The notes under the pieces were generated by a model. The model had not been told where the DNA came from, searched no databases, and was given only the letters and a program-made list of their open reading frames with translations. The position numbers were made by a program, and so were the translations under genes. Shown one piece after another: positions 3,598 through 37,068 of a stretch of 39,161 nt of DNA. Where the stretch lies: the IMG/VR virus record IMGVR_UViG_3300038334_000131, positions 1 through 39,161 of that record; one strand, written 5' to 3'. Every line of letters starts with the position of its first letter. Positions within the stretch are counted from its first letter, which is position 1. This stretch comes from a virus (Duplodnaviria; Caudoviricetes).

Positions 3598-3649
3598 TAT
3601 AATCCGCGATTTCAAATGTACATTTAAACAATTCCAAATGTACACTTTT
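3598..3649 (+). repeat. Prophage end (Mu attR-equivalent) with two transposase-binding sites 22 bp apart
   Basis: GATTTCAAATGTACATTT (3608-3625) and AATTCCAAATGTACACTTTT (3630-3649); the latter is the exact reverse complement of 36946-36965 and 37039-37058. Confidence 0.9.
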
Positions 3650-3680
3650 GCAATGGAAAAACACACCTATAATCGCGACG

Positions 3681-3893
3681 AAAATAGCTACTTTTTGTAG
3701 TAAATACCCGACAATCCAGGGAAAATAATCTAACATTTATCCGCTCTAAGGCAAATACACTGAGAATAAGACGGTTTATCTTATCGAAGCTGTATTAGTA
3801 GGTATTTTTGACTAGTGCCGTAAATAGGCTTAAAATGAATCACTCTACAATTTGTGGATTGATACTAAAAATAGCTTACTTTTGTAGTAAATA
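3681..3893 (+). promoter_or_regulatory. Duplicated promoter/operator block upstream of ORF 3911
   Basis: Near-identical AAAATAGCT(T)ACT(T)TTTGTAGTAAATA at 3681-3706 and ~3867-3893; TACTTTTG (-7 box) at 3878-3885; CTACA-N3-TGTAG-like sites at 3688 and 3845. Confidence 0.6.
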
Positions 3894-3910
3894 AACTACA
3901 AACTTGACGT

Positions 3911-4399
3911 ATGATAATCTCAGAAATTCAAATGAAAGCCATTAGGCAGCTTATAAGCAAGGCTGATAAACAACAGCTAAGCTTGCACACTCAAAAATCG
4001 GTGCGCACTATTGAGGCTGTATTGCAGTCAGACCGAATGAACGATGAAATTGAGCAGGCTATTTTGTTGACTGCTAAGCAAAACCTCTTTGCTTTGTCAA
4101 ACGTAATTCAGGACATTGAAGCAAAAAACACGGTAAAGGCATCATTGCCGGAGTTCAGAAAGTACCGCAGCTCTGCGACGTGGAACCAGGGCGGCGAATA
4201 CTCCCGATATTTAGACATTTATTTGCAGCTTACTCACTTAAAGCTTTCGGGAATGGAGGAGCTTTGGGATGTTGTTTGGAAGGATTACAAGGATTTAATT
4301 ACTAAACCCTACTATTGCATCTATTTGTTTGTGCGCCTGCTGGGTGTGGAGGATAAGGAGGCTTTAAGTTTTTTCAATAAAAAGCTTCAAAACTTTTAA
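3911..4399 (+). CDS. Hypothetical moron protein with possible N-terminal HTH
   Basis: Own promoter; opposite strand to the tail operon; DKQQLSLHTQKSVRTIEAVLQSDR resembles an HTH. Confidence 0.65.
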   Translation: MIISEIQMKAIRQLISKADKQQLSLHTQKSVRTIEAVLQSDRMNDEIEQAILLTAKQNLFALSNVIQDIEAKNTVKASLPEFRKYRSSATWNQGGEYSRYLDIYLQLTHLKLSGMEELWDVVWKDYKDLITKPYYCIYLFVRLLGVEDKEALSFFNKKLQNF

Positions 4400-4407
4400 A
4401 ACCTGCC

Positions 4408-4415
4408 TATATTTG
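4408..4415 (+). promoter_or_regulatory. Bacteroidetes -7 promoter box
   Basis: TATATTTG matches TAnnTTTG, immediately before the structured region. Confidence 0.65.
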
Positions 4416-4417
4416 TA

Positions 4418-4547
4418 GTGCCAACTATCAAAATTTTAAAAGGGAAACCCCGCGTTTTGCCCGTGTATTACCAAAATACGGGTCAGAGTGCGGGGCTTTT
4501 TACGCCCCCCTGGGTTTCCCTTGATAGTTGGCGCTTGCACTCTGACC
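4418..4547 (+). ncRNA. Putative structured regulatory RNA (C4/CI antisense-RNA-like)
   Basis: 14 bp stem 4418-4431/4521-4534; 9 bp stem 4442-4450/4512-4520; terminator-like CCCCGC/GCGGGG+T-run; alternative 11 bp pairing 4481-4491/4537-4547. Confidence 0.7.
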
Positions 4548-4553
4548 TTTTTA

Positions 4554-5342
4554 TTAATAATTCCGGGTCAATACTTCCACCTTCTTTTTACCCTTATTTA
4601 TTTTGGTAGCACACAGGTTTTTAGAGTGCTCTGTTTGAATCCAACCAAACCGCTGTGCGTATTTATTAAGCTCAGCGTTAGGGAACGACGATAAAAGAAA
4701 CCTCCCCTTAACATTCGACAATGTTTCCAGGAGGGCATTAAAATGATGTTGTGTGTACCCCGTATAATGACCCTGGTCAGTTTCCGGGTAGGGCGGATCG
4801 CAATAAAAGAACGTATCAACACTATCCCGGCTTTTTATCACCCGGAGCGCGTCCTGGCTTTCAATTTGAACACGGCTTAAACGGTTGCTAAACACCTCCT
4901 GAAAGCGAAGCTTTGCATTGTCAACCTTTTTCTCACAAGTGTTTTCTTTGCGGGCATAAGCCCAGCCGCCGCCAATAATTGAACTGAAGCTTTGCGACGT
5001 GTTTACCCAAAAGGCCCAGGCGCGTTTTACTTCAGAAAATAAATGAGGGTTTGAACTTATTACCCGTGCGTCGTCGTAAAGCTGGCGACTGTGGATGGTG
5101 GATTGAACCAGGCTGTAAAGCTCGTCGAAATGTAGCTTTAAAACCCTGTAAAAGTTTATTACTTCGGTGTTAAGGTCGTTTATTACCTCTACTTTGCTGG
5201 GTTCTTTCGCCCAAAACACCGCTGCACCGCCGCAAAAGGGTTCGCAATAAAGCGAATGCTCAGGAATGAGCGGTAAAATTTCCTTGAGCATCATTTGTTT
5301 ACCGCCGTAGTAGCTTACCGGCGTTTTTAAATAAATTCGCAT
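4554..5342 (-). CDS. D12-class N6-adenine DNA methyltransferase (Dam-like)
   Basis: SYYGGK, EPFCGGAAV (motif I), INDLN, FFYCDPPY (motif IV). Confidence 0.93.
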   Translation of the reverse strand: MRIYLKTPVSYYGGKQMMLKEILPLIPEHSLYCEPFCGGAAVFWAKEPSKVEVINDLNTEVINFYRVLKLHFDELYSLVQSTIHSRQLYDDARVISSNPHLFSEVKRAWAFWVNTSQSFSSIIGGGWAYARKENTCEKKVDNAKLRFQEVFSNRLSRVQIESQDALRVIKSRDSVDTFFYCDPPYPETDQGHYTGYTQHHFNALLETLSNVKGRFLLSSFPNAELNKYAQRFGWIQTEHSKNLCATKINKGKKKVEVLTRNY

Positions 5343-5351
5343 GACTTTAAG

Positions 5352-5391
5352 TTTTAAAGGTTAATACTTTTCCCGTGTATTACCTTTAAAA
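5352..5391 (-). promoter_or_regulatory. Hairpin in methylase 5' leader
   Basis: 15 bp stem with one bulge (TTTTAAAGG-T-TAATAC / GTATTA-CCTTTAAAA), 9 nt loop, ending 10 nt before the ATG. Confidence 0.7.
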
Positions 5392-5396
5392 GCTTT

Positions 5397-5609
5397 TTAT
5401 TTAGCGTTAAACACCTGCGTAATAACACCCGGGGCAATAAGCTCCCCCAGGTTAACCAAAAGCCTTGGACTCTCGTTTGTGGCGCGGATATCGATAGCAT
5501 ACCCGGCTCTAAGGTTAACCACCTCAGTAATTACTTCAGGGGGTAATATATCACCCAAGTTAATTAGTGTCATCTCGCTTGTCTCTGATTGTATAAGGTC
5601 TATTTCCAT
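5397..5609 (-). CDS. Small hypothetical protein with an internal duplication
   Basis: LINLGDILPPEVITEVVN vs LVNLGELIAPGVITQVFN; coupled to the upstream tail gene. Confidence 0.65.
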   Translation of the reverse strand: MEIDLIQSETSEMTLINLGDILPPEVITEVVNLRAGYAIDIRATNESPRLLVNLGELIAPGVITQVFNAK

Positions 5610-6715
5610 GTTGCAGGTATTAATGCTTGATTATCAAAATTACAGCTTCCAAAACATGTAGTTCCGTTCGGTTCGGGCACCCGGAGCCAATAAGCTGGGG
5701 CATCCCCAGTCAATAAGGACAGGAACCTAAACGTTCCAATCATTTCAGTAATATTTGGGCTGTTTGCAAATAAATTGGCAGGTACATCACCTGATAAATC
5801 AGTGTTATAAAACAAATAAGAAACTATTGCTAAATATGGGTGATTTGAAAGAAAATCGTTTGGAATTGTATTAGAAATGCCAGTATCTCTGAAATGGCCG
5901 TAAACTGTGTTTAGTAGCGTACAATTTGACAAATAACCTGCCGGAATTGCCCCTGTAATGTTTGGGCAAATCCAAAACACTCCTGCGGCATCTGTTAGTA
6001 AAGTACAATTTATAAATAAGTTTGCTGGAATAGCTCCTGATACCAGGGTTTCTCTAAACAAATACCGAACATTCGTTAGCTTTGTACAGTAGATAAGGAA
6101 ATTAACTGGTATCCCCCCAGAAATTTGTGAGCCTGAGAATAAATTACTTATGTTAGTCAATTCGGTGCAATGGTCGAGAAATGTTACCGGAACTATTCCT
6201 GTTAAATCTGTACTAGCAAGCGCATATGATAGATTGGTTACTAAATGAGAATAATAAAGGAAGTTTGAAGGAATTGACCCGGAAACACTCGTGCCAAAAT
6301 ACATTGCGGCTCCATTTACCAATTTATTGAGTCCCTCAGAATCATCCGGTATAGTGCCGGTAAGATTAGAACAACCATAAAAATTCAAAGCCACAAGACC
6401 TATATCACCAAATTTTAAATGCTTCGTGATATAACCTTTCATAGCTCCATTGCTCACCCAAAAGCTCTCACAAGTCCCCACAATCTTAACCTCGTAGGTT
6501 CCGGCTACAGCATAGGTGTGTGAGGCATTAGGGTCATTATAAGCGGCTACGTACTTGCGGGGGGAGCCATCCCCCCAGTCAACAAAATAGGTATAAACAT
6601 ACCCGCTTAAATGTGGGAGCGTCACCGTTGTATTGTCGGGAACAGTCCATTCAGTTACGAAAGGCTTTGAGGCTTTGCCCCACAAATTGGCGTTATTGGC
6701 AACAATCAAACTCAT
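5600..6715 (-). CDS. Tail-associated adhesin: PKD-like domain plus BspA-like leucine-rich repeats
   Basis: VDWGDGS...HTYAVAGTYEVKI followed by ~24 aa repeats (ISGxIPxNFLxxCTxLTNVxxLF). Confidence 0.75.
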   Translation of the reverse strand: MSLIVANNANLWGKASKPFVTEWTVPDNTTVTLPHLSGYVYTYFVDWGDGSPRKYVAAYNDPNASHTYAVAGTYEVKIVGTCESFWVSNGAMKGYITKHLKFGDIGLVALNFYGCSNLTGTIPDDSEGLNKLVNGAAMYFGTSVSGSIPSNFLYYSHLVTNLSYALASTDLTGIVPVTFLDHCTELTNISNLFSGSQISGGIPVNFLIYCTKLTNVRYLFRETLVSGAIPANLFINCTLLTDAAGVFWICPNITGAIPAGYLSNCTLLNTVYGHFRDTGISNTIPNDFLSNHPYLAIVSYLFYNTDLSGDVPANLFANSPNITEMIGTFRFLSLLTGDAPAYWLRVPEPNGTTCFGSCNFDNQALIPATWK

Positions 6716-18738: not shown

Positions 18739-19191
18739 ATGGCTGCACTTACCAACAAACAAAAGAAAGACTGGGCTAAACTCCTGTTTTTAAAGGAGAA
18801 TTTAACGCAAAAAGAAATTGCCGAGCGCGTTGGCGTTACCGAAAAAACAATAAGCAACTGGGTTAACGACAAAAAGGAAAACTGGGAGATGCTTAAAAGC
18901 TCGGTAATTGTTACAAAAAGCGAGGAACTCCGGCGCATTTACATGCAGATAAACGAGCTTAACACCTTTATTGCAACCCGTGAACCAGGGCAGCGTTTCG
19001 CAAATTCTAAAGAGGCCGACTCGCTGAATAAGCTGGCAGCAACCGTCCGGGCACTTGAAACCGATGTGGCTATAGCCGATGTCATTGAGGTATTCAAGCG
19101 GTTTACCGAATGGCTCCGGGCGGTCGACCTCGACAAGGCAAAGGATGTGATTCGGCTCGAAGATGACTTTATTAAACACCTTTTAAAGTAA
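18739..19191 (+). CDS. Terminase small subunit-like HTH protein
   Basis: LTQKEIAERVGVTEKTISNW HTH directly upstream of large terminase. Confidence 0.8.
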   Translation: MAALTNKQKKDWAKLLFLKENLTQKEIAERVGVTEKTISNWVNDKKENWEMLKSSVIVTKSEELRRIYMQINELNTFIATREPGQRFANSKEADSLNKLAATVRALETDVAIADVIEVFKRFTEWLRAVDLDKAKDVIRLEDDFIKHLLK

Positions 19192-19195
19192 TGCC

Positions 19196-20728
19196 ATGCA
19201 AGTATTAAAAGCCGACGACAAAAGAGCCCTGCTCGATTGGAGCGAGTACCGCGAGAACCTGATAAAACTCACAAGTGTTGAGTATGAGCCTGAAGAAGCA
19301 AAACGAGTGCGTATTAAACATCTCGAAAAGAACCCAGAGGAATGGTTTAAATACTACTTTCCGAACTATGCCTATGCCGAGCCTGCCGAGTTTCACAAAA
19401 AGGCTACCAAGCGGATAATGTCAAACGACAACTGGTACGAGGTAAGGGCATGGAGCCGCGAGCTGGCAAAAAGCACCCGGGGCATGATGGAGTTTATTTT
19501 TATGGCAATGACCGGGAAACTAAAAAACATTGTACTGGTTTCACACTCTTACGACCAGGCCGAAATCCTTTTAAAGCCGTTCAAAATTAACTTCGAAAGC
19601 AACCAACGGCTTATAAACGACTATGGTATACAAGAAAAACCCGGTGAGTGGACAAGCGGTCTTTTCGTAATTCGCGCGGGCTGCTCTTTTTGCGCTATTG
19701 GTTCAGGTCAAAGTCCCAGGGGTTTTAAAAACGAAGAAATAAGGCCCGACGGCATTTTGATAGACGACATCGACACCGACGAGGAAGCCAGGAACCCCGA
19801 GCGAATTAAAACAAAATGGAAGTGGATTGAGGAAGCCCTGTTTTTCTCCATGTCGGTTAGTAAGCGCAAGCTCATTCTTTTCCTGGGTAACATTATCGGA
19901 AAGGACACTTGTATTACTCGGGCTATTAAAAAAGCTGATTACGCCTCAATTGTAAACATCCGCGACAAAAACGGGATTAGCTCCTGGGCCGCCAAAAATA
20001 CCGAGGAGGCAATTGACTGGATGCTTAATAAGGTAAGTTATGCAGCCGGGCAAAAAGAGTTTTTTAATAATCCTATTAGCGAGGGTTCTGTTTTTAAAGA
20101 AATGCGCTGGGGTAAGGTTCCTCCGCTATCAAAATTTCCGTTTTTGCTTAAATACGGCGACCCGGCCCCAAGCAACAAAGAGAATAAGTCCAACAGCAAC
20201 AAGGCTAACTTGCTCCTGGGGATGCTCGGCGGAAAACTGTATGTGATTACAGGTTACCTGGAGCAGGTTACAAACTCAAAATTTGTAAACTGGTACTGGG
20301 ACTTAGAGGATTATGTAAAAGGTAAAAACATTACCTATAATTACATAGAAAACAATAGCCTGCAAGACCCTTTTTATGAGCAGGTCTTCTTGCCCCTGTT
20401 TAAAGAAACTGCCATTACACGGCAAAAGGCTATTTATCCAACGCCCGACGAGCGCAAAAAACCCGACAAATTTACTCGCATCGAGGGAAACCTGGAACCT
20501 TTGAATCGTTTGGGAAACCTTATACTAAACGAGGCGGAGCGCAATAACCCACACATGCTGCGGCTCGAAGAGCAGTTTAAGCTGGTAGAGCCCACCTTAA
20601 GCGCCAATGTCGACGGCCCCGACGCTGTGGAAGGTGGTTATTGGGTTATTTTAACCAAGCTTAAGGTGGTAAAAAAAGAAGACATTGCAACCGGCCCCCG
20701 TGGCCGTCAATCAGGTAACCGGTACTAA
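19196..20728 (+). CDS. Terminase large subunit
   Basis: WSRELAKST (Walker A variant), GQSPRG, ILIDDID (Walker B), DGPDAVEG nuclease motif. Confidence 0.92.
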   Translation: MQVLKADDKRALLDWSEYRENLIKLTSVEYEPEEAKRVRIKHLEKNPEEWFKYYFPNYAYAEPAEFHKKATKRIMSNDNWYEVRAWSRELAKSTRGMMEFIFMAMTGKLKNIVLVSHSYDQAEILLKPFKINFESNQRLINDYGIQEKPGEWTSGLFVIRAGCSFCAIGSGQSPRGFKNEEIRPDGILIDDIDTDEEARNPERIKTKWKWIEEALFFSMSVSKRKLILFLGNIIGKDTCITRAIKKADYASIVNIRDKNGISSWAAKNTEEAIDWMLNKVSYAAGQKEFFNNPISEGSVFKEMRWGKVPPLSKFPFLLKYGDPAPSNKENKSNSNKANLLLGMLGGKLYVITGYLEQVTNSKFVNWYWDLEDYVKGKNITYNYIENNSLQDPFYEQVFLPLFKETAITRQKAIYPTPDERKKPDKFTRIEGNLEPLNRLGNLILNEAERNNPHMLRLEEQFKLVEPTLSANVDGPDAVEGGYWVILTKLKVVKKEDIATGPRGRQSGNRY

Positions 20729-20742
20729 TTAATAATACTATT

Positions 20743-21027
20743 ATGGCAAAACTTTCAGCAGTAGAAAAAAAAACCAACTCGCCCGACTTTCTTTTTCATT
20801 GTCCGGGCTGTGGTTATTCGCATGGTGTTTGGACTACCCGGCTACCTGGCGAAAATCATCCCCTTTGGCAATTTAACGGCGACATAAACAACCCAACCAT
20901 AAGCCCCAGCTTATTGGTTCGCGGCCAGTTTATCTGTCATTCGTTTATTCGCTCGGGAAAAATTCAATTCCTTAACGACTGTACGCATCATTTAGCCGGT
21001 CAAACCATCGACATGCAGGATGTCTAA
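20743..21027 (+). CDS. Cys/His-rich small protein (DUF6527-like)
   Basis: CPGCGYSH, WQFNGD..PTISPSLL, CHSFI..G.IQFL.DCTH. Confidence 0.75.
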   Translation: MAKLSAVEKKTNSPDFLFHCPGCGYSHGVWTTRLPGENHPLWQFNGDINNPTISPSLLVRGQFICHSFIRSGKIQFLNDCTHHLAGQTIDMQDV

Positions 21028-21059
21028 AGTCTAAATTCTAACATCTAAACTCTAAAAAA

Positions 21060-21473
21060 ATGGCATTCATTGAAGAAACAGATTTAGCCCGGGCAATGCG
21101 CCAGGAATACATCGACGAAATTAAGCGCACCGACGATGCGCTGATACCTCACTGCACAGGCTCGGCCATTGCCGAAATGAAAACATACCTGCGCGAAACC
21201 TACGATGTCGACACCATTTTTGCAAAAACAGCAGCCCAACGAAATAGCCTGCTGGTAACCTTTGCCGTCGATATAGCCATATACAACCTTATCGAGGCCG
21301 TGCCCGTGGGTGTCGATGTGGAACAGCGGCGACTGAGGTACAAGCGGGCTATCGACTGGCTTATCGGTGTGCAAAAGCAAAACATTATGCCCGATTTGCC
21401 TATACTGGCAGATTCGCCGGCGCAAAGCGCTATAATTATAAAATCAGTTGAGCGGCGCGAACTGCGCTATTAA
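21060..21473 (+). CDS. Mu gp36-like head-tail adaptor
   Basis: AIAEMKTYL, DIAIYNL, RYKRAIDWL...PDLP. Confidence 0.85.
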   Translation: MAFIEETDLARAMRQEYIDEIKRTDDALIPHCTGSAIAEMKTYLRETYDVDTIFAKTAAQRNSLLVTFAVDIAIYNLIEAVPVGVDVEQRRLRYKRAIDWLIGVQKQNIMPDLPILADSPAQSAIIIKSVERRELRY

Positions 21474-21543
21474 ATTTAGCTTAAACAAGTGTTTAATACC
21501 GTTCAAAATTAATTTAACCACCCCTTAAAACACATTCGTAGCC

Positions 21544-22824
21544 ATGGCAGAAAGAAACGCTAAAAAAACGCCCTCAGAGGGCATTTTAATACAAACCCTC
21601 GATATTAAGCAGATAAACCGCAGTAATGTCGACATTAAACGCTGGCGCGATGCGCTAAAAGCAGCCGAGGGAACCACTGAAAATCGTAAGCTCTTATACG
21701 AGTTGTACGACGACATGATACTCGACGGCCACTTGCGATCTGTTATGAATAAGCGCATCATGTCTATTACCAATACCGACCTGGTATTTATGAAAGACGG
21801 CAAGGAGGTAGAGGAAATGTGGCCGGTAATAAACTCAAAGGAGTTTAAAAAGGTACTCCGGTACATTATCGAGGCAAAGCTATACGGCCACAGCACGGTT
21901 GAATTTACAGCCGGTAACGAAATGGACTTTACTGCTGACCTAATCGACCGCCGCCACGTTAAACCGCGCATGGGCCTCGTGGTTAAAAGTACCGGCGACA
22001 CCACCGGCGAAGCTTTTCGCGAGCCACCTTACAATAACTTTGTGCTCGAGGTGGGCGGTAAAAAAGACTTTGGCCTGTTATTACAGGCTTCGCAGTATGT
22101 TATTTACAAACGCGGGGCGCTGGGCGACTATGCCGACTACCTGCAACTATTTGGCGTTCCATTCCGCCACGCGAAGTACGAGAACCCCGAGTCGCGCAAG
22201 GTAATTGACGAGGCTATGGCTAACATGGGCTCTGCTGGCTGGGCCAGTACCCCTAAAGATGTTGAAATAAATATACTGCGGGCCGAAGGGGCCACCGGGG
22301 CAAACCTTATTTTCAAAGGCTTTATTAAAGATGTTTGCAACGACGAGATTAGCGTTACCATCCTGGGGCAAACCATGACCACCAGCGACAGCAAAAACTC
22401 AGGTTTTGCCCAGGGCGTTGTACATGCCGGTGTCGAGAGTCAGATACACGCCGACGACCGCCGCGACACGCTGGCCGTTTTAAACTCCGACGTGGTTCGC
22501 ATTTTGGCTAACCTGGGCTTTCCAACCGAGGGCGGTGAGTTTATTTATCCCGATATCGATACGCTAAGCCTGAAAGATCGGATCGACATCGATACCAAAG
22601 CCGCCGGGCTGGTTGAGTTGCCTAAGCGCTATATTTACGATAAATATAGCATTCCAATGCCCGAGGGCGGCGAGGAAACAACCGGCGGGCAGCAGCCCTC
22701 AGAATCTCAAAAACCCGAAGCGCAAAAAAAAGCTAAAAAGCTAAGCCACCACGATATTATTGAGGCCGAGCTGGTAGACGAAAAAGGCTTTTGGAAAAAA
22801 CTGGGAGAGCTCCTTTTTTCGTAG
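21544..22824 (+). CDS. Portal protein (Mu gp29/DUF935-like)
   Basis: LYDDMILDGHL, FGVPFRHAKY, EISVTILGQTMTT, QGVVH. Confidence 0.92.
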   Translation: MAERNAKKTPSEGILIQTLDIKQINRSNVDIKRWRDALKAAEGTTENRKLLYELYDDMILDGHLRSVMNKRIMSITNTDLVFMKDGKEVEEMWPVINSKEFKKVLRYIIEAKLYGHSTVEFTAGNEMDFTADLIDRRHVKPRMGLVVKSTGDTTGEAFREPPYNNFVLEVGGKKDFGLLLQASQYVIYKRGALGDYADYLQLFGVPFRHAKYENPESRKVIDEAMANMGSAGWASTPKDVEINILRAEGATGANLIFKGFIKDVCNDEISVTILGQTMTTSDSKNSGFAQGVVHAGVESQIHADDRRDTLAVLNSDVVRILANLGFPTEGGEFIYPDIDTLSLKDRIDIDTKAAGLVELPKRYIYDKYSIPMPEGGEETTGGQQPSESQKPEAQKKAKKLSHHDIIEAELVDEKGFWKKLGELLFS

Positions 22825-23701
22825 TAACCCCGCCAAGGTTGGCACCGGAAGCGGGGAGCACAGTCACAGCCACAAGCTGGCCGACAAGCCAAAAGGACTA
22901 AAAACAAAAGGCTATGCCGCCTTTAATGCAAAAATTGAGGACATTCTTGAACAGCTTTTAAGCGGTAGTTTAAAACCTCAAGACCTCGACTTTGATTTGT
23001 GGGAAACAACCGTTCAAAACCTGTTAAATGCTGGTTCAAGCGGGTACGGTCAAAGCTTTATAAACATCGATAACGACCTGCCCGATGTGGAAATGATTAA
23101 GAAGCTGAAAGAAAACATTTACCGCTTTGCAGGCTTCAAAACACACAACCATTTGGTGGCATTAAACAAACTGCTTATTGGCGACAACGGGCAAATGGTT
23201 CCTTACAACGAGTTCCGCAAAAAAGCCCAGGAATACCGGCAAAAAGCGCTTAAGGTAAACGACCTTTACAACGAGGCGCATCTGTACACCGAGTACCAAA
23301 CGGCACTTATCCAAAGCCAACACGCGGCAGAGTGGCAACGTTTTGAGGCCGATAAGGATATTTTTCCGTATTTAAAATTCAATAAAACGCCAAACGAGTA
23401 CGACCGCCACAAAAAGTACGACGGGCTTGTTTTTGCCATCGACGACCCCATACTCGACGCATTAAGCCCGCAGTTAGACTGGGGGTGTGAGTGTTATTTA
23501 ACCCAGGAGGAAAAAAAGCCAAAGCGGCAGCAGGTTCCCGAGGTTAACGACGTGCCCGCAGAGTTCGCTTCAAATGTGGGAAAAACCGGGGAGGCTTTTA
23601 ACGAAAAACACAATTATTTTAAAGTCGAAAAAGGAGCTAAAACCACTATTGAAAAGAATTTGAACACTTTTATAACTGACTTTGAAAAGCGGAAAAAGTA
23701 A
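22814..23701 (+). CDS. MuF-like minor head protein, probably expressed as a frameshift fusion to portal
   Basis: FAGFKTH, LYTEYQTA, FPYLKF, PQLDWGCEC; frame is open from 22778 with no ATG/GTG/TTG before 22997. Confidence 0.85.
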   Translation, partial: FFRSNPAKVGTGSGEHSHSHKLADKPKGLKTKGYAAFNAKIEDILEQLLSGSLKPQDLDFDLWETTVQNLLNAGSSGYGQSFINIDNDLPDVEMIKKLKENIYRFAGFKTHNHLVALNKLLIGDNGQMVPYNEFRKKAQEYRQKALKVNDLYNEAHLYTEYQTALIQSQHAAEWQRFEADKDIFPYLKFNKTPNEYDRHKKYDGLVFAIDDPILDALSPQLDWGCECYLTQEEKKPKRQQVPEVNDVPAEFASNVGKTGEAFNEKHNYFKVEKGAKTTIEKNLNTFITDFEKRKK

Positions 23702-24225
23702 TGCCAGGCAAACAGGTTAATATGAATCACTTTGGCGCTCACCTGCGCAAAACACTCGACAAAGCCCCGCGGGTTATTGGCGTAATGGCGCTAAACCATT
23801 TTAAAGAGAGCTTTAAAATGCAGCAGTTTAACAATCCCGGCTCACCGCGATGGGAGCCAACCAAAAGCGGCAAAAGCAGTGGTATTCTAATTGGTAAACA
23901 AAGCGGTGCCCTGCGTAACAGCGGCCAGGTACTTCAGGCCGATTTAAAGCTCATTCGCGTGGGGTTCCTGCGCCCTTACGCAAACACACACAACCGCGGC
24001 GGGGTAGTGCATCCGCGGGTAACGCCTCAAATGCGAAAGTTTGCCTGGGCCAAACATTACAGTGCAAGAACCAACGACGAAAAAGAGAAGTGGAAAGGCC
24101 TGGCGCTAACTAAAAAAACACGATTAACCATTAAAATACCAAAGCGCCAGTTTGTAGGCCCCAGCCGCAGCCTGAACGTAAAGGTTAACGCCTGGCTTTC
24201 GTCAAACCTCGATTATCGGGGCTAA
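23701..24225 (+). CDS. Virion morphogenesis protein (Mu gpG-like)
   Basis: SGALRNS, PYANTHNRGG, IKIPKRQFVG. Confidence 0.85.
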   Translation: MPGKQVNMNHFGAHLRKTLDKAPRVIGVMALNHFKESFKMQQFNNPGSPRWEPTKSGKSSGILIGKQSGALRNSGQVLQADLKLIRVGFLRPYANTHNRGGVVHPRVTPQMRKFAWAKHYSARTNDEKEKWKGLALTKKTRLTIKIPKRQFVGPSRSLNVKVNAWLSSNLDYRG

Positions 24226-24247
24226 CTATTAACTAAACACTATTATT

Positions 24248-24676
24248 ATGGACTTAATTAAAATCATTTACGAGGCCATTCGCGACCGGCTTAAAGCCGA
24301 GGTTCCGGCCATTGTTTTTATCGACGAGGATAACGACCAGCTCGATTATGAGGAGCCGCCCGTTTCGTTCCCCTGTGCCCTGGTCGATGTGTTGGATTTA
24401 AACTACGACTCAACCGAGGACTTTTTCGCCTCGGGAACCGTGCTGGTAAAAGTAACCTTTGCCTTTAAAAGTTTCCTGCCTACCGACAGCCTTACTCCCT
24501 CGGCTGAAGCTTTTGCCTGGAGCCCGACACTGGCCGGCGGTATAAGTGCAATAAACGGCTATGAGCCGGCCAATTCAACCGGCTTTATTAAGCAGGGGTA
24601 CACCCGGGTAAAGCGCCCAGGGTTAAAAGTGTACGAGGCCCGCTTTAACATCAACTTTGCCGGACGCAATGTATAA
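24248..24676 (+). CDS. Tail terminator-like protein
   Basis: IDEDNDQLD..PPVSFPCALVD; position after gpG. Confidence 0.7.
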   Translation: MDLIKIIYEAIRDRLKAEVPAIVFIDEDNDQLDYEEPPVSFPCALVDVLDLNYDSTEDFFASGTVLVKVTFAFKSFLPTDSLTPSAEAFAWSPTLAGGISAINGYEPANSTGFIKQGYTRVKRPGLKVYEARFNINFAGRNV

Positions 24677-36686: not shown

Positions 36687-36887
36687 ATGCCAACTATCAA
36701 CATTAATAAGCTCCACATTAATCAGCTAAATCTTGCCGATAATTTAACGCTTAACAATCACGAAATTAAAAGAGATTGCCACGGATGTCGGTCGGTATGT
36801 CCACGCTACCAGGAGTACATAAATAGCCTCAGGAATGAAATAATAAAGCTTAAGGAGGAGCTTATTATACTAGCAAATGGTAAATAG
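36687..36887 (+). CDS. Small Cys-containing coiled-coil protein
   Basis: CHGCRSVC followed by heptads; lies downstream of repressor. Confidence 0.6.
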   Translation: MPTININKLHINQLNLADNLTLNNHEIKRDCHGCRSVCPRYQEYINSLRNEIIKLKEELIILANGK

Positions 36888-36945: not shown

Positions 36946-37068
36946 AAAAGTGTACATTTGGAATTGGTGATAAGTTACCATTGAATAACGTGTAACTCTT
37001 TGTTATTGCTATCTTTGCTAAATAAACATTAACTATTTAAAAGTGTACATTTGGAATTAGGCCCCATA
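36946..37068 (-). repeat. Prophage end (Mu attL-equivalent) with two separated transposase-binding sites
   Basis: AAAAGTGTACATTTGGAATT at 36946-36965 and 37039-37058. Confidence 0.9.

Follow-up and report, generated by a model that had tools for sequence, protein, structure and literature searches.

In phage Mu, the Com protein opens a hairpin in the leader of mom. Small RNAs that activate rpoS-type leaders and synthetic toehold switches work by anti-antisense opening of a hairpin. FluMu-type prophages are described with Com-linked methylases and with adenine methylases in the mom position (PMC3299994), and StxS is given as an activating sRNA on the rpoS leader (PMC12197685). IsrK, an sRNA of the Gifsy-1 prophage, unfolds an inhibitory structure and so activates translation in trans (PMC4825925). 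C4 RNA of P1 and P7 and CI RNA of P4 are branched phage antisense RNAs of about 100 nt with a long closing stem (PMC12197685, PMC4825925), and have been described from Proteobacteria (PMC2864571). In Bacteroides, BatR and FopS/GibS pair near start codons and repress host genes (PMC10861873, PMC11697453). The Bacteroidota are without Shine-Dalgarno sequences and tune initiation by structure (PMC6847099).

Here we analyzed a viral stretch of 39,161 nucleotides (the window) in which a predicted small RNA lies opposite the 3' end of a phage DNA methylase gene. As in Mu com/mom, a DNA-modifying gene stands at the end of a Mu-like genome, here under predicted translational activation, behind a leader structure that folding predicts to inhibit translation. 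Unlike in com/mom, the activator is a predicted RNA whose gene lies downstream in the opposite orientation, no Com was found, the enzyme is of the D12 class (PF02086) rather than Mom (acetamido-adenine), and the host belongs to the Bacteroidota. By prediction the RNA works like Com, yet the system is not a com/mom member. It shares with IsrK a complementary site downstream of the RNA itself, whereas IsrK acts on its own read-through mRNA (orf45-anrP) and the target here is a separate convergent gene. The branched fold with a long terminal stem, the variable pairing segments and the self-complementary downstream site resemble C4 and CI, which, however, repress or terminate (PMC12197685, PMC4825925). 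In contrast to C4, CI and IsrK, the regulated methylase is on the opposite strand in every match, and not downstream on the same strand. The difference from rpoS-type sRNAs is that each phage has one dedicated RNA-leader pair with a guide of its own, and that the phylum lacks Shine-Dalgarno sequences. BatR and FopS/GibS have other structures and are unrelated to the methylase RNA, as is a 2026 genome-language-model preprint (bioRxiv 10.64898/2026.09.22.753630). Activating sRNAs and C4/IsrK-like phage RNAs are thus known, but in family, target and gating the element matches none found in the literature searched. That search found no description of the element; most subscription papers and the supplement of PMC5737381, which describes 224 motifs, were outside its scope.

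Prophage setting of the methylase gene

Profile searches identified the window as a Mu-like prophage with a Mu-type transposase, a MuB-like ATPase, a Mu portal, gp36 and a repressor. The transposase, ATPase, portal and gp36 all lie between two end repeats.

3629..3649, strand not given: prophage end repeat, with an exact 21-nt inverted copy at 36946-36966
4554..5342, minus strand: D12-class N6-adenine DNA methyltransferase, 262 aa (PF02086, E 1e-24; phrog_56, E 3e-61)

The methylase starts at an ATG at 5342 and is the final gene of the minus-strand tail module, i.e., it holds the mom position; its match to TIGR00571 scores below the cut-off. Relatives of this locus, where named, are mostly Bacteroidota, and Portal_Mu was present in 13 of 24 related records, many of which are fragments. 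The terminase-portal-head block (18739-24676) is on the plus strand and the capsid and tail genes are on the other strand, among them a tail-end protein (5600-6715, minus) with repeats and a weak PKD-like N-terminus. Near the prophage end are two imperfect direct repeats of about 34 nt (3679-3714 and 3866-3901), possibly protein-binding sites. A 162-aa ORF between the prophage end and the RNA (3911-4399, plus) had no Pfam, PHROG or NCBIfam match.

A predicted small RNA and its match to the methylase leader

The elements on the two sides of the methylase gene are as follows.

4408..4415, plus strand: promoter-like box of the type TAnnTTTG (TATATTTG), from sequence
4417..4535, plus strand: structured small RNA with a closing stem P1, an inner stem, a guide hairpin and a side hairpin (fold z -7.9)
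4417-4430 with 4522-4535, plus strand: closing stem P1, with both sides changing in 10/10 pairs across 16 relatives
4460..4472, plus strand: guide, complementary to the methylase leader (own leader rank 1 of 148)
4480..4492, plus strand: latch strand a', forming the 3' side of the guide hairpin and complementary to site a as well
4536..4552, plus strand: downstream site a (4536-4548), then a U-run (rank 1 of 34 tails)
5352..5391, minus strand: predicted leader hairpin, with the 5' arm at 5391-5377, the loop at 5376-5368 and the 3' arm at 5367-5352
5372..5384, minus strand: target, made up of 5 loop nucleotides (the toehold) and 8 nucleotides of the 5' arm

An earlier sequence-only reading had proposed a promoter ahead of a structured plus-strand region. 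Both parts were recovered: the box at 4408-4415 is presumably a Bacteroidota -7 box, and the plus strand of 4415-4540 folded at -65 kcal/mol, a value that 0 of 200 shuffles equaled, compared with -54.7 kcal/mol for the minus strand. A sigma-70 promoter scan, with a model that does not cover this promoter type, was at chance level. The RNA would be transcribed from the convergent box and could also be supplied by read-through from the 162-aa ORF. The U-run after site a, which stops just short of the methylase stop codon, likely marks the RNA 3' end. A small ORF in the element (GTG at 4418, 63 aa) was set aside as a reading because the stems show compensatory changes. No Rfam family matches the element, including the C4, CI and IsrK models and anything named D12-methyl, a name reportedly given to an RNA motif by Weinberg in 2017.

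The 13-mer CCCGTGTATTACC was found, as that reading had it, at 4460-4472 and 5372-5384, and the match extends to 16 of 17 identical positions (4456-4472 against 5368-5384). The 4.32 Mb genome contains no further copy. Taken alone, this repeat is only suggestive, because 55 of 20000 random genome pairs of the same geometry share at least 13 nt and the window contains dozens of exact 13-mer direct repeats. Folding also agreed with the proposed leader hairpin (14-15 bp, 9-nt loop, -11.1 kcal/mol), in which the target takes up part of the loop and the upstream arm. The other arm covers -25 to -10 relative to the ATG and so ends 10 nt before it, as had been claimed. The target lies at -42 to -30, i.e., 30-42 nt upstream of the methylase ATG, and the arm that it would free ends at -10.

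Conservation of the match in related loci

We fetched 228 related loci. With the window this made 229, of which 201 could be parsed and 168 included both flanks; clustering at 90% reduced these to 148. The element was defined without regard to the leader, by a promoter-like box, a closing stem and folding energy, on the opposite strand over the 330 nt that follow the methylase stop. The first filter was passed by 39 loci, five of which were dropped for weak folding or a TT-type box, and the strict one by 34 of the 148 non-redundant D12 methylase loci; a TAnnTTTG-type box 1-6 nt before the stem is part of the definition of these 34 elements.

The RNAs were then compared with all 148 leaders. 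The best contiguous helix was formed with the RNA's own leader in 19 of 34 cases, where about 0.2 are expected by chance, and the own leader was among the top 3 in 22. Reverse-complement controls placed it in the top 3 in 4/34, all of them cases that match through a stem arm (class B, below). The whole-molecule duplex energy hardly discriminated (own leader rank 1 in 1/34 and top 3 in 5/34). The RNA-RNA pairing proposed for the window therefore held up as a contiguous helix, with its own leader at rank 1 of 148, but not by whole-molecule energy, where it ranked 41.

We denoted as class A the 22 loci in which an inner hairpin supplies the guide from its 5' strand and loop. The target in these loci is a leader hairpin, of which the guide matches the loop and 5' arm, while the 3' arm sits on the start region or immediately before it; the class was assigned after the matches were seen, and three target boundaries were set by eye. 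Every class A target has 5-11 unpaired loop nucleotides and 4-15 that are paired to a downstream arm. The guide-target match is mostly 10-22 nt long, and there are 20 distinct 10-nt target ends among the 22 loci. Internal transitions between guide and target were G-U-compatible for the antisense strand by 17 to 7 (p 0.03). The p-values given here overstate significance because 17 of the 22 loci share one clade; the window is on a separate branch, and pairwise protein identity ranges from 47 to 96%. The fold preference for the RNA strand was modest in class A (15/22).

A 23rd locus (L145) came from outside this sample. Its class A-like leader was noticed first, before its element, which was then found by a model built without it (E 4e-8). 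The guide of L145 matches its own leader with one bulge (rank 4 of 148), and the cost of opening its start region falls from 7.6 to 4.1 on relief. With this locus added to the 22, the guide co-varies with the leader hairpin, both in the loop and 5' arm that it matches and in the 3' arm predicted to occlude the start, which was the check suggested for homologues, and the guide-leader match is general at the sequence level, being kept by covariation across 23 related loci. The covariance model R1 performs weakly, recovering L145, L094, L002, L121 and L103 but giving the window E 0.4 (E 0.09 on the opposite strand). A class-wide search of 141 genomes with this weak model, which included no positive control, gave no match. 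A descriptor of the element found the window copy and one weak match in the host genome and nothing in 1.5 Mb of shuffled sequence.

The lack of a com-like gene, already remarked on for the window, extended to the related records. No match to PF10122 (Com) exceeded the cut-off in 58 records, some with the element and some lacking it. The 600 nt upstream contained no CxxC-CxxC ORF in any of the 23 class A loci (less than 500 nt were available for two of them); the 70-aa ORF upstream in the window is without Cys. Because element-free records also yielded no Com, the replacement of Com by the RNA is best taken as an analogy.

Predicted occlusion of the start region and its relief

The cost of opening -15 to +3 had a median of 9.0 kcal/mol in class A and 3.6 kcal/mol in 81 element-free loci (p 2e-6), of which 35 also need at least 5 kcal/mol; in all 34 unselected loci it was 7.5 kcal/mol (p 2e-4). 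With the target blocked, the start region became easier to open by >1 kcal/mol in all class A loci but one (21 of 22), compared with 35 of 109 controls, which included class C (below). In the window, the opening cost fell from 8.8 to 4.0 when the target was held unpaired. By folding, the guide pairs with the upstream arm of a start-hiding hairpin, the arrangement expected of an activating sRNA, in 22/22 class A loci.

Read directly from sequence are the Mu-like prophage, the position of the methylase, the convergent promoter-like box with its stem, and the match between guide and target, which covaries from locus to locus. Since the guide and the hairpin change together across 23 loci, the RNA likely switches the enzyme on. 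In the mechanism that we propose, the late mRNA would fold the leader hairpin, with its 3' arm predicted to cover the A-rich region before the AUG. The guide would dock on the leader loop, displace the 5' arm and thereby free the 3' arm. The invasion of the hairpin by a convergent sRNA, which the sequence-only reading had put forward as probably activating, is thus supported by homologue covariation and folding. Like Com in the case of mom, such a switch would postpone methylation to the lytic phase, so that the DNA of the progeny is shielded from restriction. The housekeeping-type promoter alone does not account for late timing.

A predicted latch on the guide

In the best structure of the RNA by itself, the 5' half of the guide is base-paired; this is the portion with the match to the leader loop. 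Removal of a' made the guide cheaper to open by >2 kcal/mol in 19 of 20 loci. The net binding computed for the window was +0.2 kcal/mol with the guide closed and -7.5 kcal/mol with a' captured. Folding therefore predicts a guide that is latched by a' in the window RNA, and binding that becomes favourable only once a' is removed.

Nearly all of the 34 elements have a site past the closing stem that pairs with a', with a T-rich run after it; in the window, the duplex of a' with this tail has -23.4 kcal/mol. Across 16 aligned members the a':a helix is 99% paired, compared with 24-44% in slid controls, and 4 of 8 pairs change on both sides. The covariation values of a':a and P1 were reached in 0 of 500 shuffles, a test that is inflated by related sequences. 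Site a, just past the RNA 3' end, could capture a' and free the guide. A plain cis refold was rejected on energy, with a median penalty of 14.3 kcal/mol in 21 loci. Because of this cost of about 14 kcal/mol, a':a would have to form in trans, as a pseudoknot or kinetically, during transcription. Pairing of IsrK and CI in trans with their own read-through transcripts is a precedent (PMC4825925). The latch, the downstream self-pairing site, the possible second target at 36687 and two other arrangements, all presented here or below, had been missed by the sequence-only reading.

Other arrangements and alternative explanations

In about 10 loci (class B: L076, L109, L119, L132, L139, L148, L009, L010, L034, L163), the sequence at or next to the start codon could pair with the 5' arm of the RNA. 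Their leaders are mostly weakly structured (7/10 open for <5 kcal/mol), and these RNAs look like repressors. For L109, L139 and L009 there is, in addition, a similarity of the mRNA to the tail site, which would make a two-part target like that of C4.

The class B targets on the start codon raise the question of whether the class A RNA, too, pairs with the leader but represses, by blocking ribosome loading or standby, by RNase III cleavage or by premature termination, keeping the methylase off in the lysogen. Its closest scaffold analogues, C4 (PMC12197685) and CI (PMC4825925), repress, and a housekeeping-type promoter suits a lysogenic repressor. The targets of L001, L155 and L161 extend as far as -11 to -7, a position at which the ribosome could be obstructed by the bound RNA; among class A loci, relief was missing in L001 only. 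However, most class A targets end short of -15, an already-shut leader has no need of a repressor, and the target arm is paired to the downstream arm in 22 of 22 loci, with its removal opening the start in 21. We consider repression unlikely and activation of methylase translation, through pairing with the leader loop and upstream arm, probable.

A similar element was found in 33 further loci, in 30 of them directly upstream of the methylase (class C; examples are L004, L075, L121, L123, L160, L177, L191, L198 and L214, with about 20 more). In class C it lies 10-170 nt upstream and overlaps the methylase leader. The promoter-like box is on the strand opposite the methylase in all and on the methylase strand in none, and the mRNA strand folds better in 25/30. 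The proposed homology to class A draws on the shared layout and one model match (L121, E 1e-3).

These upstream elements, about 30 of which resemble the class A element and fold better on the mRNA strand, would fit an element that acts mainly in cis, as a 3'-end or termination structure of the methylase mRNA or as a class C relic, the leader match being a leftover duplication. The resemblance of class B leaders to copies of the stem's 3' arm and the modest strand preference of class A (15/22) point the same way. A relic would decay, though, and the match has been kept, mostly at 10-22 nt, in 20 sequences with G-U-biased changes; it also takes in the loop of the RNA, which only the antisense strand can supply. 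We regard this explanation as still less plausible than repression. It is very improbable that the 13-mers act as DNA, i.e., as a protein-binding site or as recombination repeats: exact direct repeats do flank the gene in the window, but the sequence varies between loci, copies within a locus differ in the G-U-compatible direction, and both copies lie in RNA structures. A chance repeat, for which the background of 55/20000 and the dozens of other 13-mer repeats in the window might speak, is refuted for the family by the same geometry in 22 other loci and has a negligible probability in the window.

A possible second target and wider meaning

The RNA may also reach a gene beside the repressor.

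36687..36887, plus strand: orphan ORF of 66 aa behind the repressor; the 5' arm of the RNA is copied in its first codons

Among 142624 ATG triplets in the genome, 36687 is the only one with a match of at least 14/15 to this arm. The 3' arm of the RNA could pair there (-19.4 kcal/mol); this arm is buried in the closing stem. The leader of the ORF folds a hairpin that ends just before the ATG. The product had no relatives among proteins of near length. A search of nine other phages for a second target found no 5'-arm copy at a start, and a match in L002 was rejected, being inside an apparent reading frame. The ORF is a possible second target of the 3' arm, as judged from these matches.

A broader proposal is that transposable phages of the Bacteroidota use, in place of Com, a family of latch-gated natural toehold RNAs not described before. 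Each phage would evolve a guide-leader pair particular to it, the RNA would stay inactive until its latch strand is taken up, one scaffold would have been adapted into activator, repressor and overlapping-antisense forms around a single methylase gene, and the copy in the window would also reach a second gene. We put this forward tentatively, as slightly less probable than its opposite. If true, activation of the methylase by the RNA would be a natural RNA counterpart of the Com/mom protein switch that arose independently in the same place of the genome, and the RNA would be one of the few phage sRNAs to activate a gene separate from their own. With about 20 distinct natural guide-leader pairs, the 23 loci offer RNA switches ready for use in the Bacteroidota, and the timing of phage DNA methylation against host restriction becomes testable.

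Some loci fell outside the three classes. In L007, L035, L043 and L044, where no adjacent element was detected, the first methylase codons contain AGTGTGAC, which resembles a class B target and may reflect coding conservation or a distant RNA. L038, also with no element detected, has an exact 12-nt copy of its pre-start leader sequence about 30 nt past the stop. Seven loci (L180, L171, L164, L216, L227, L128, L133) have related, element-free leaders with strong structure at the start and SD-like GGAG motifs, and are possibly under a different control.
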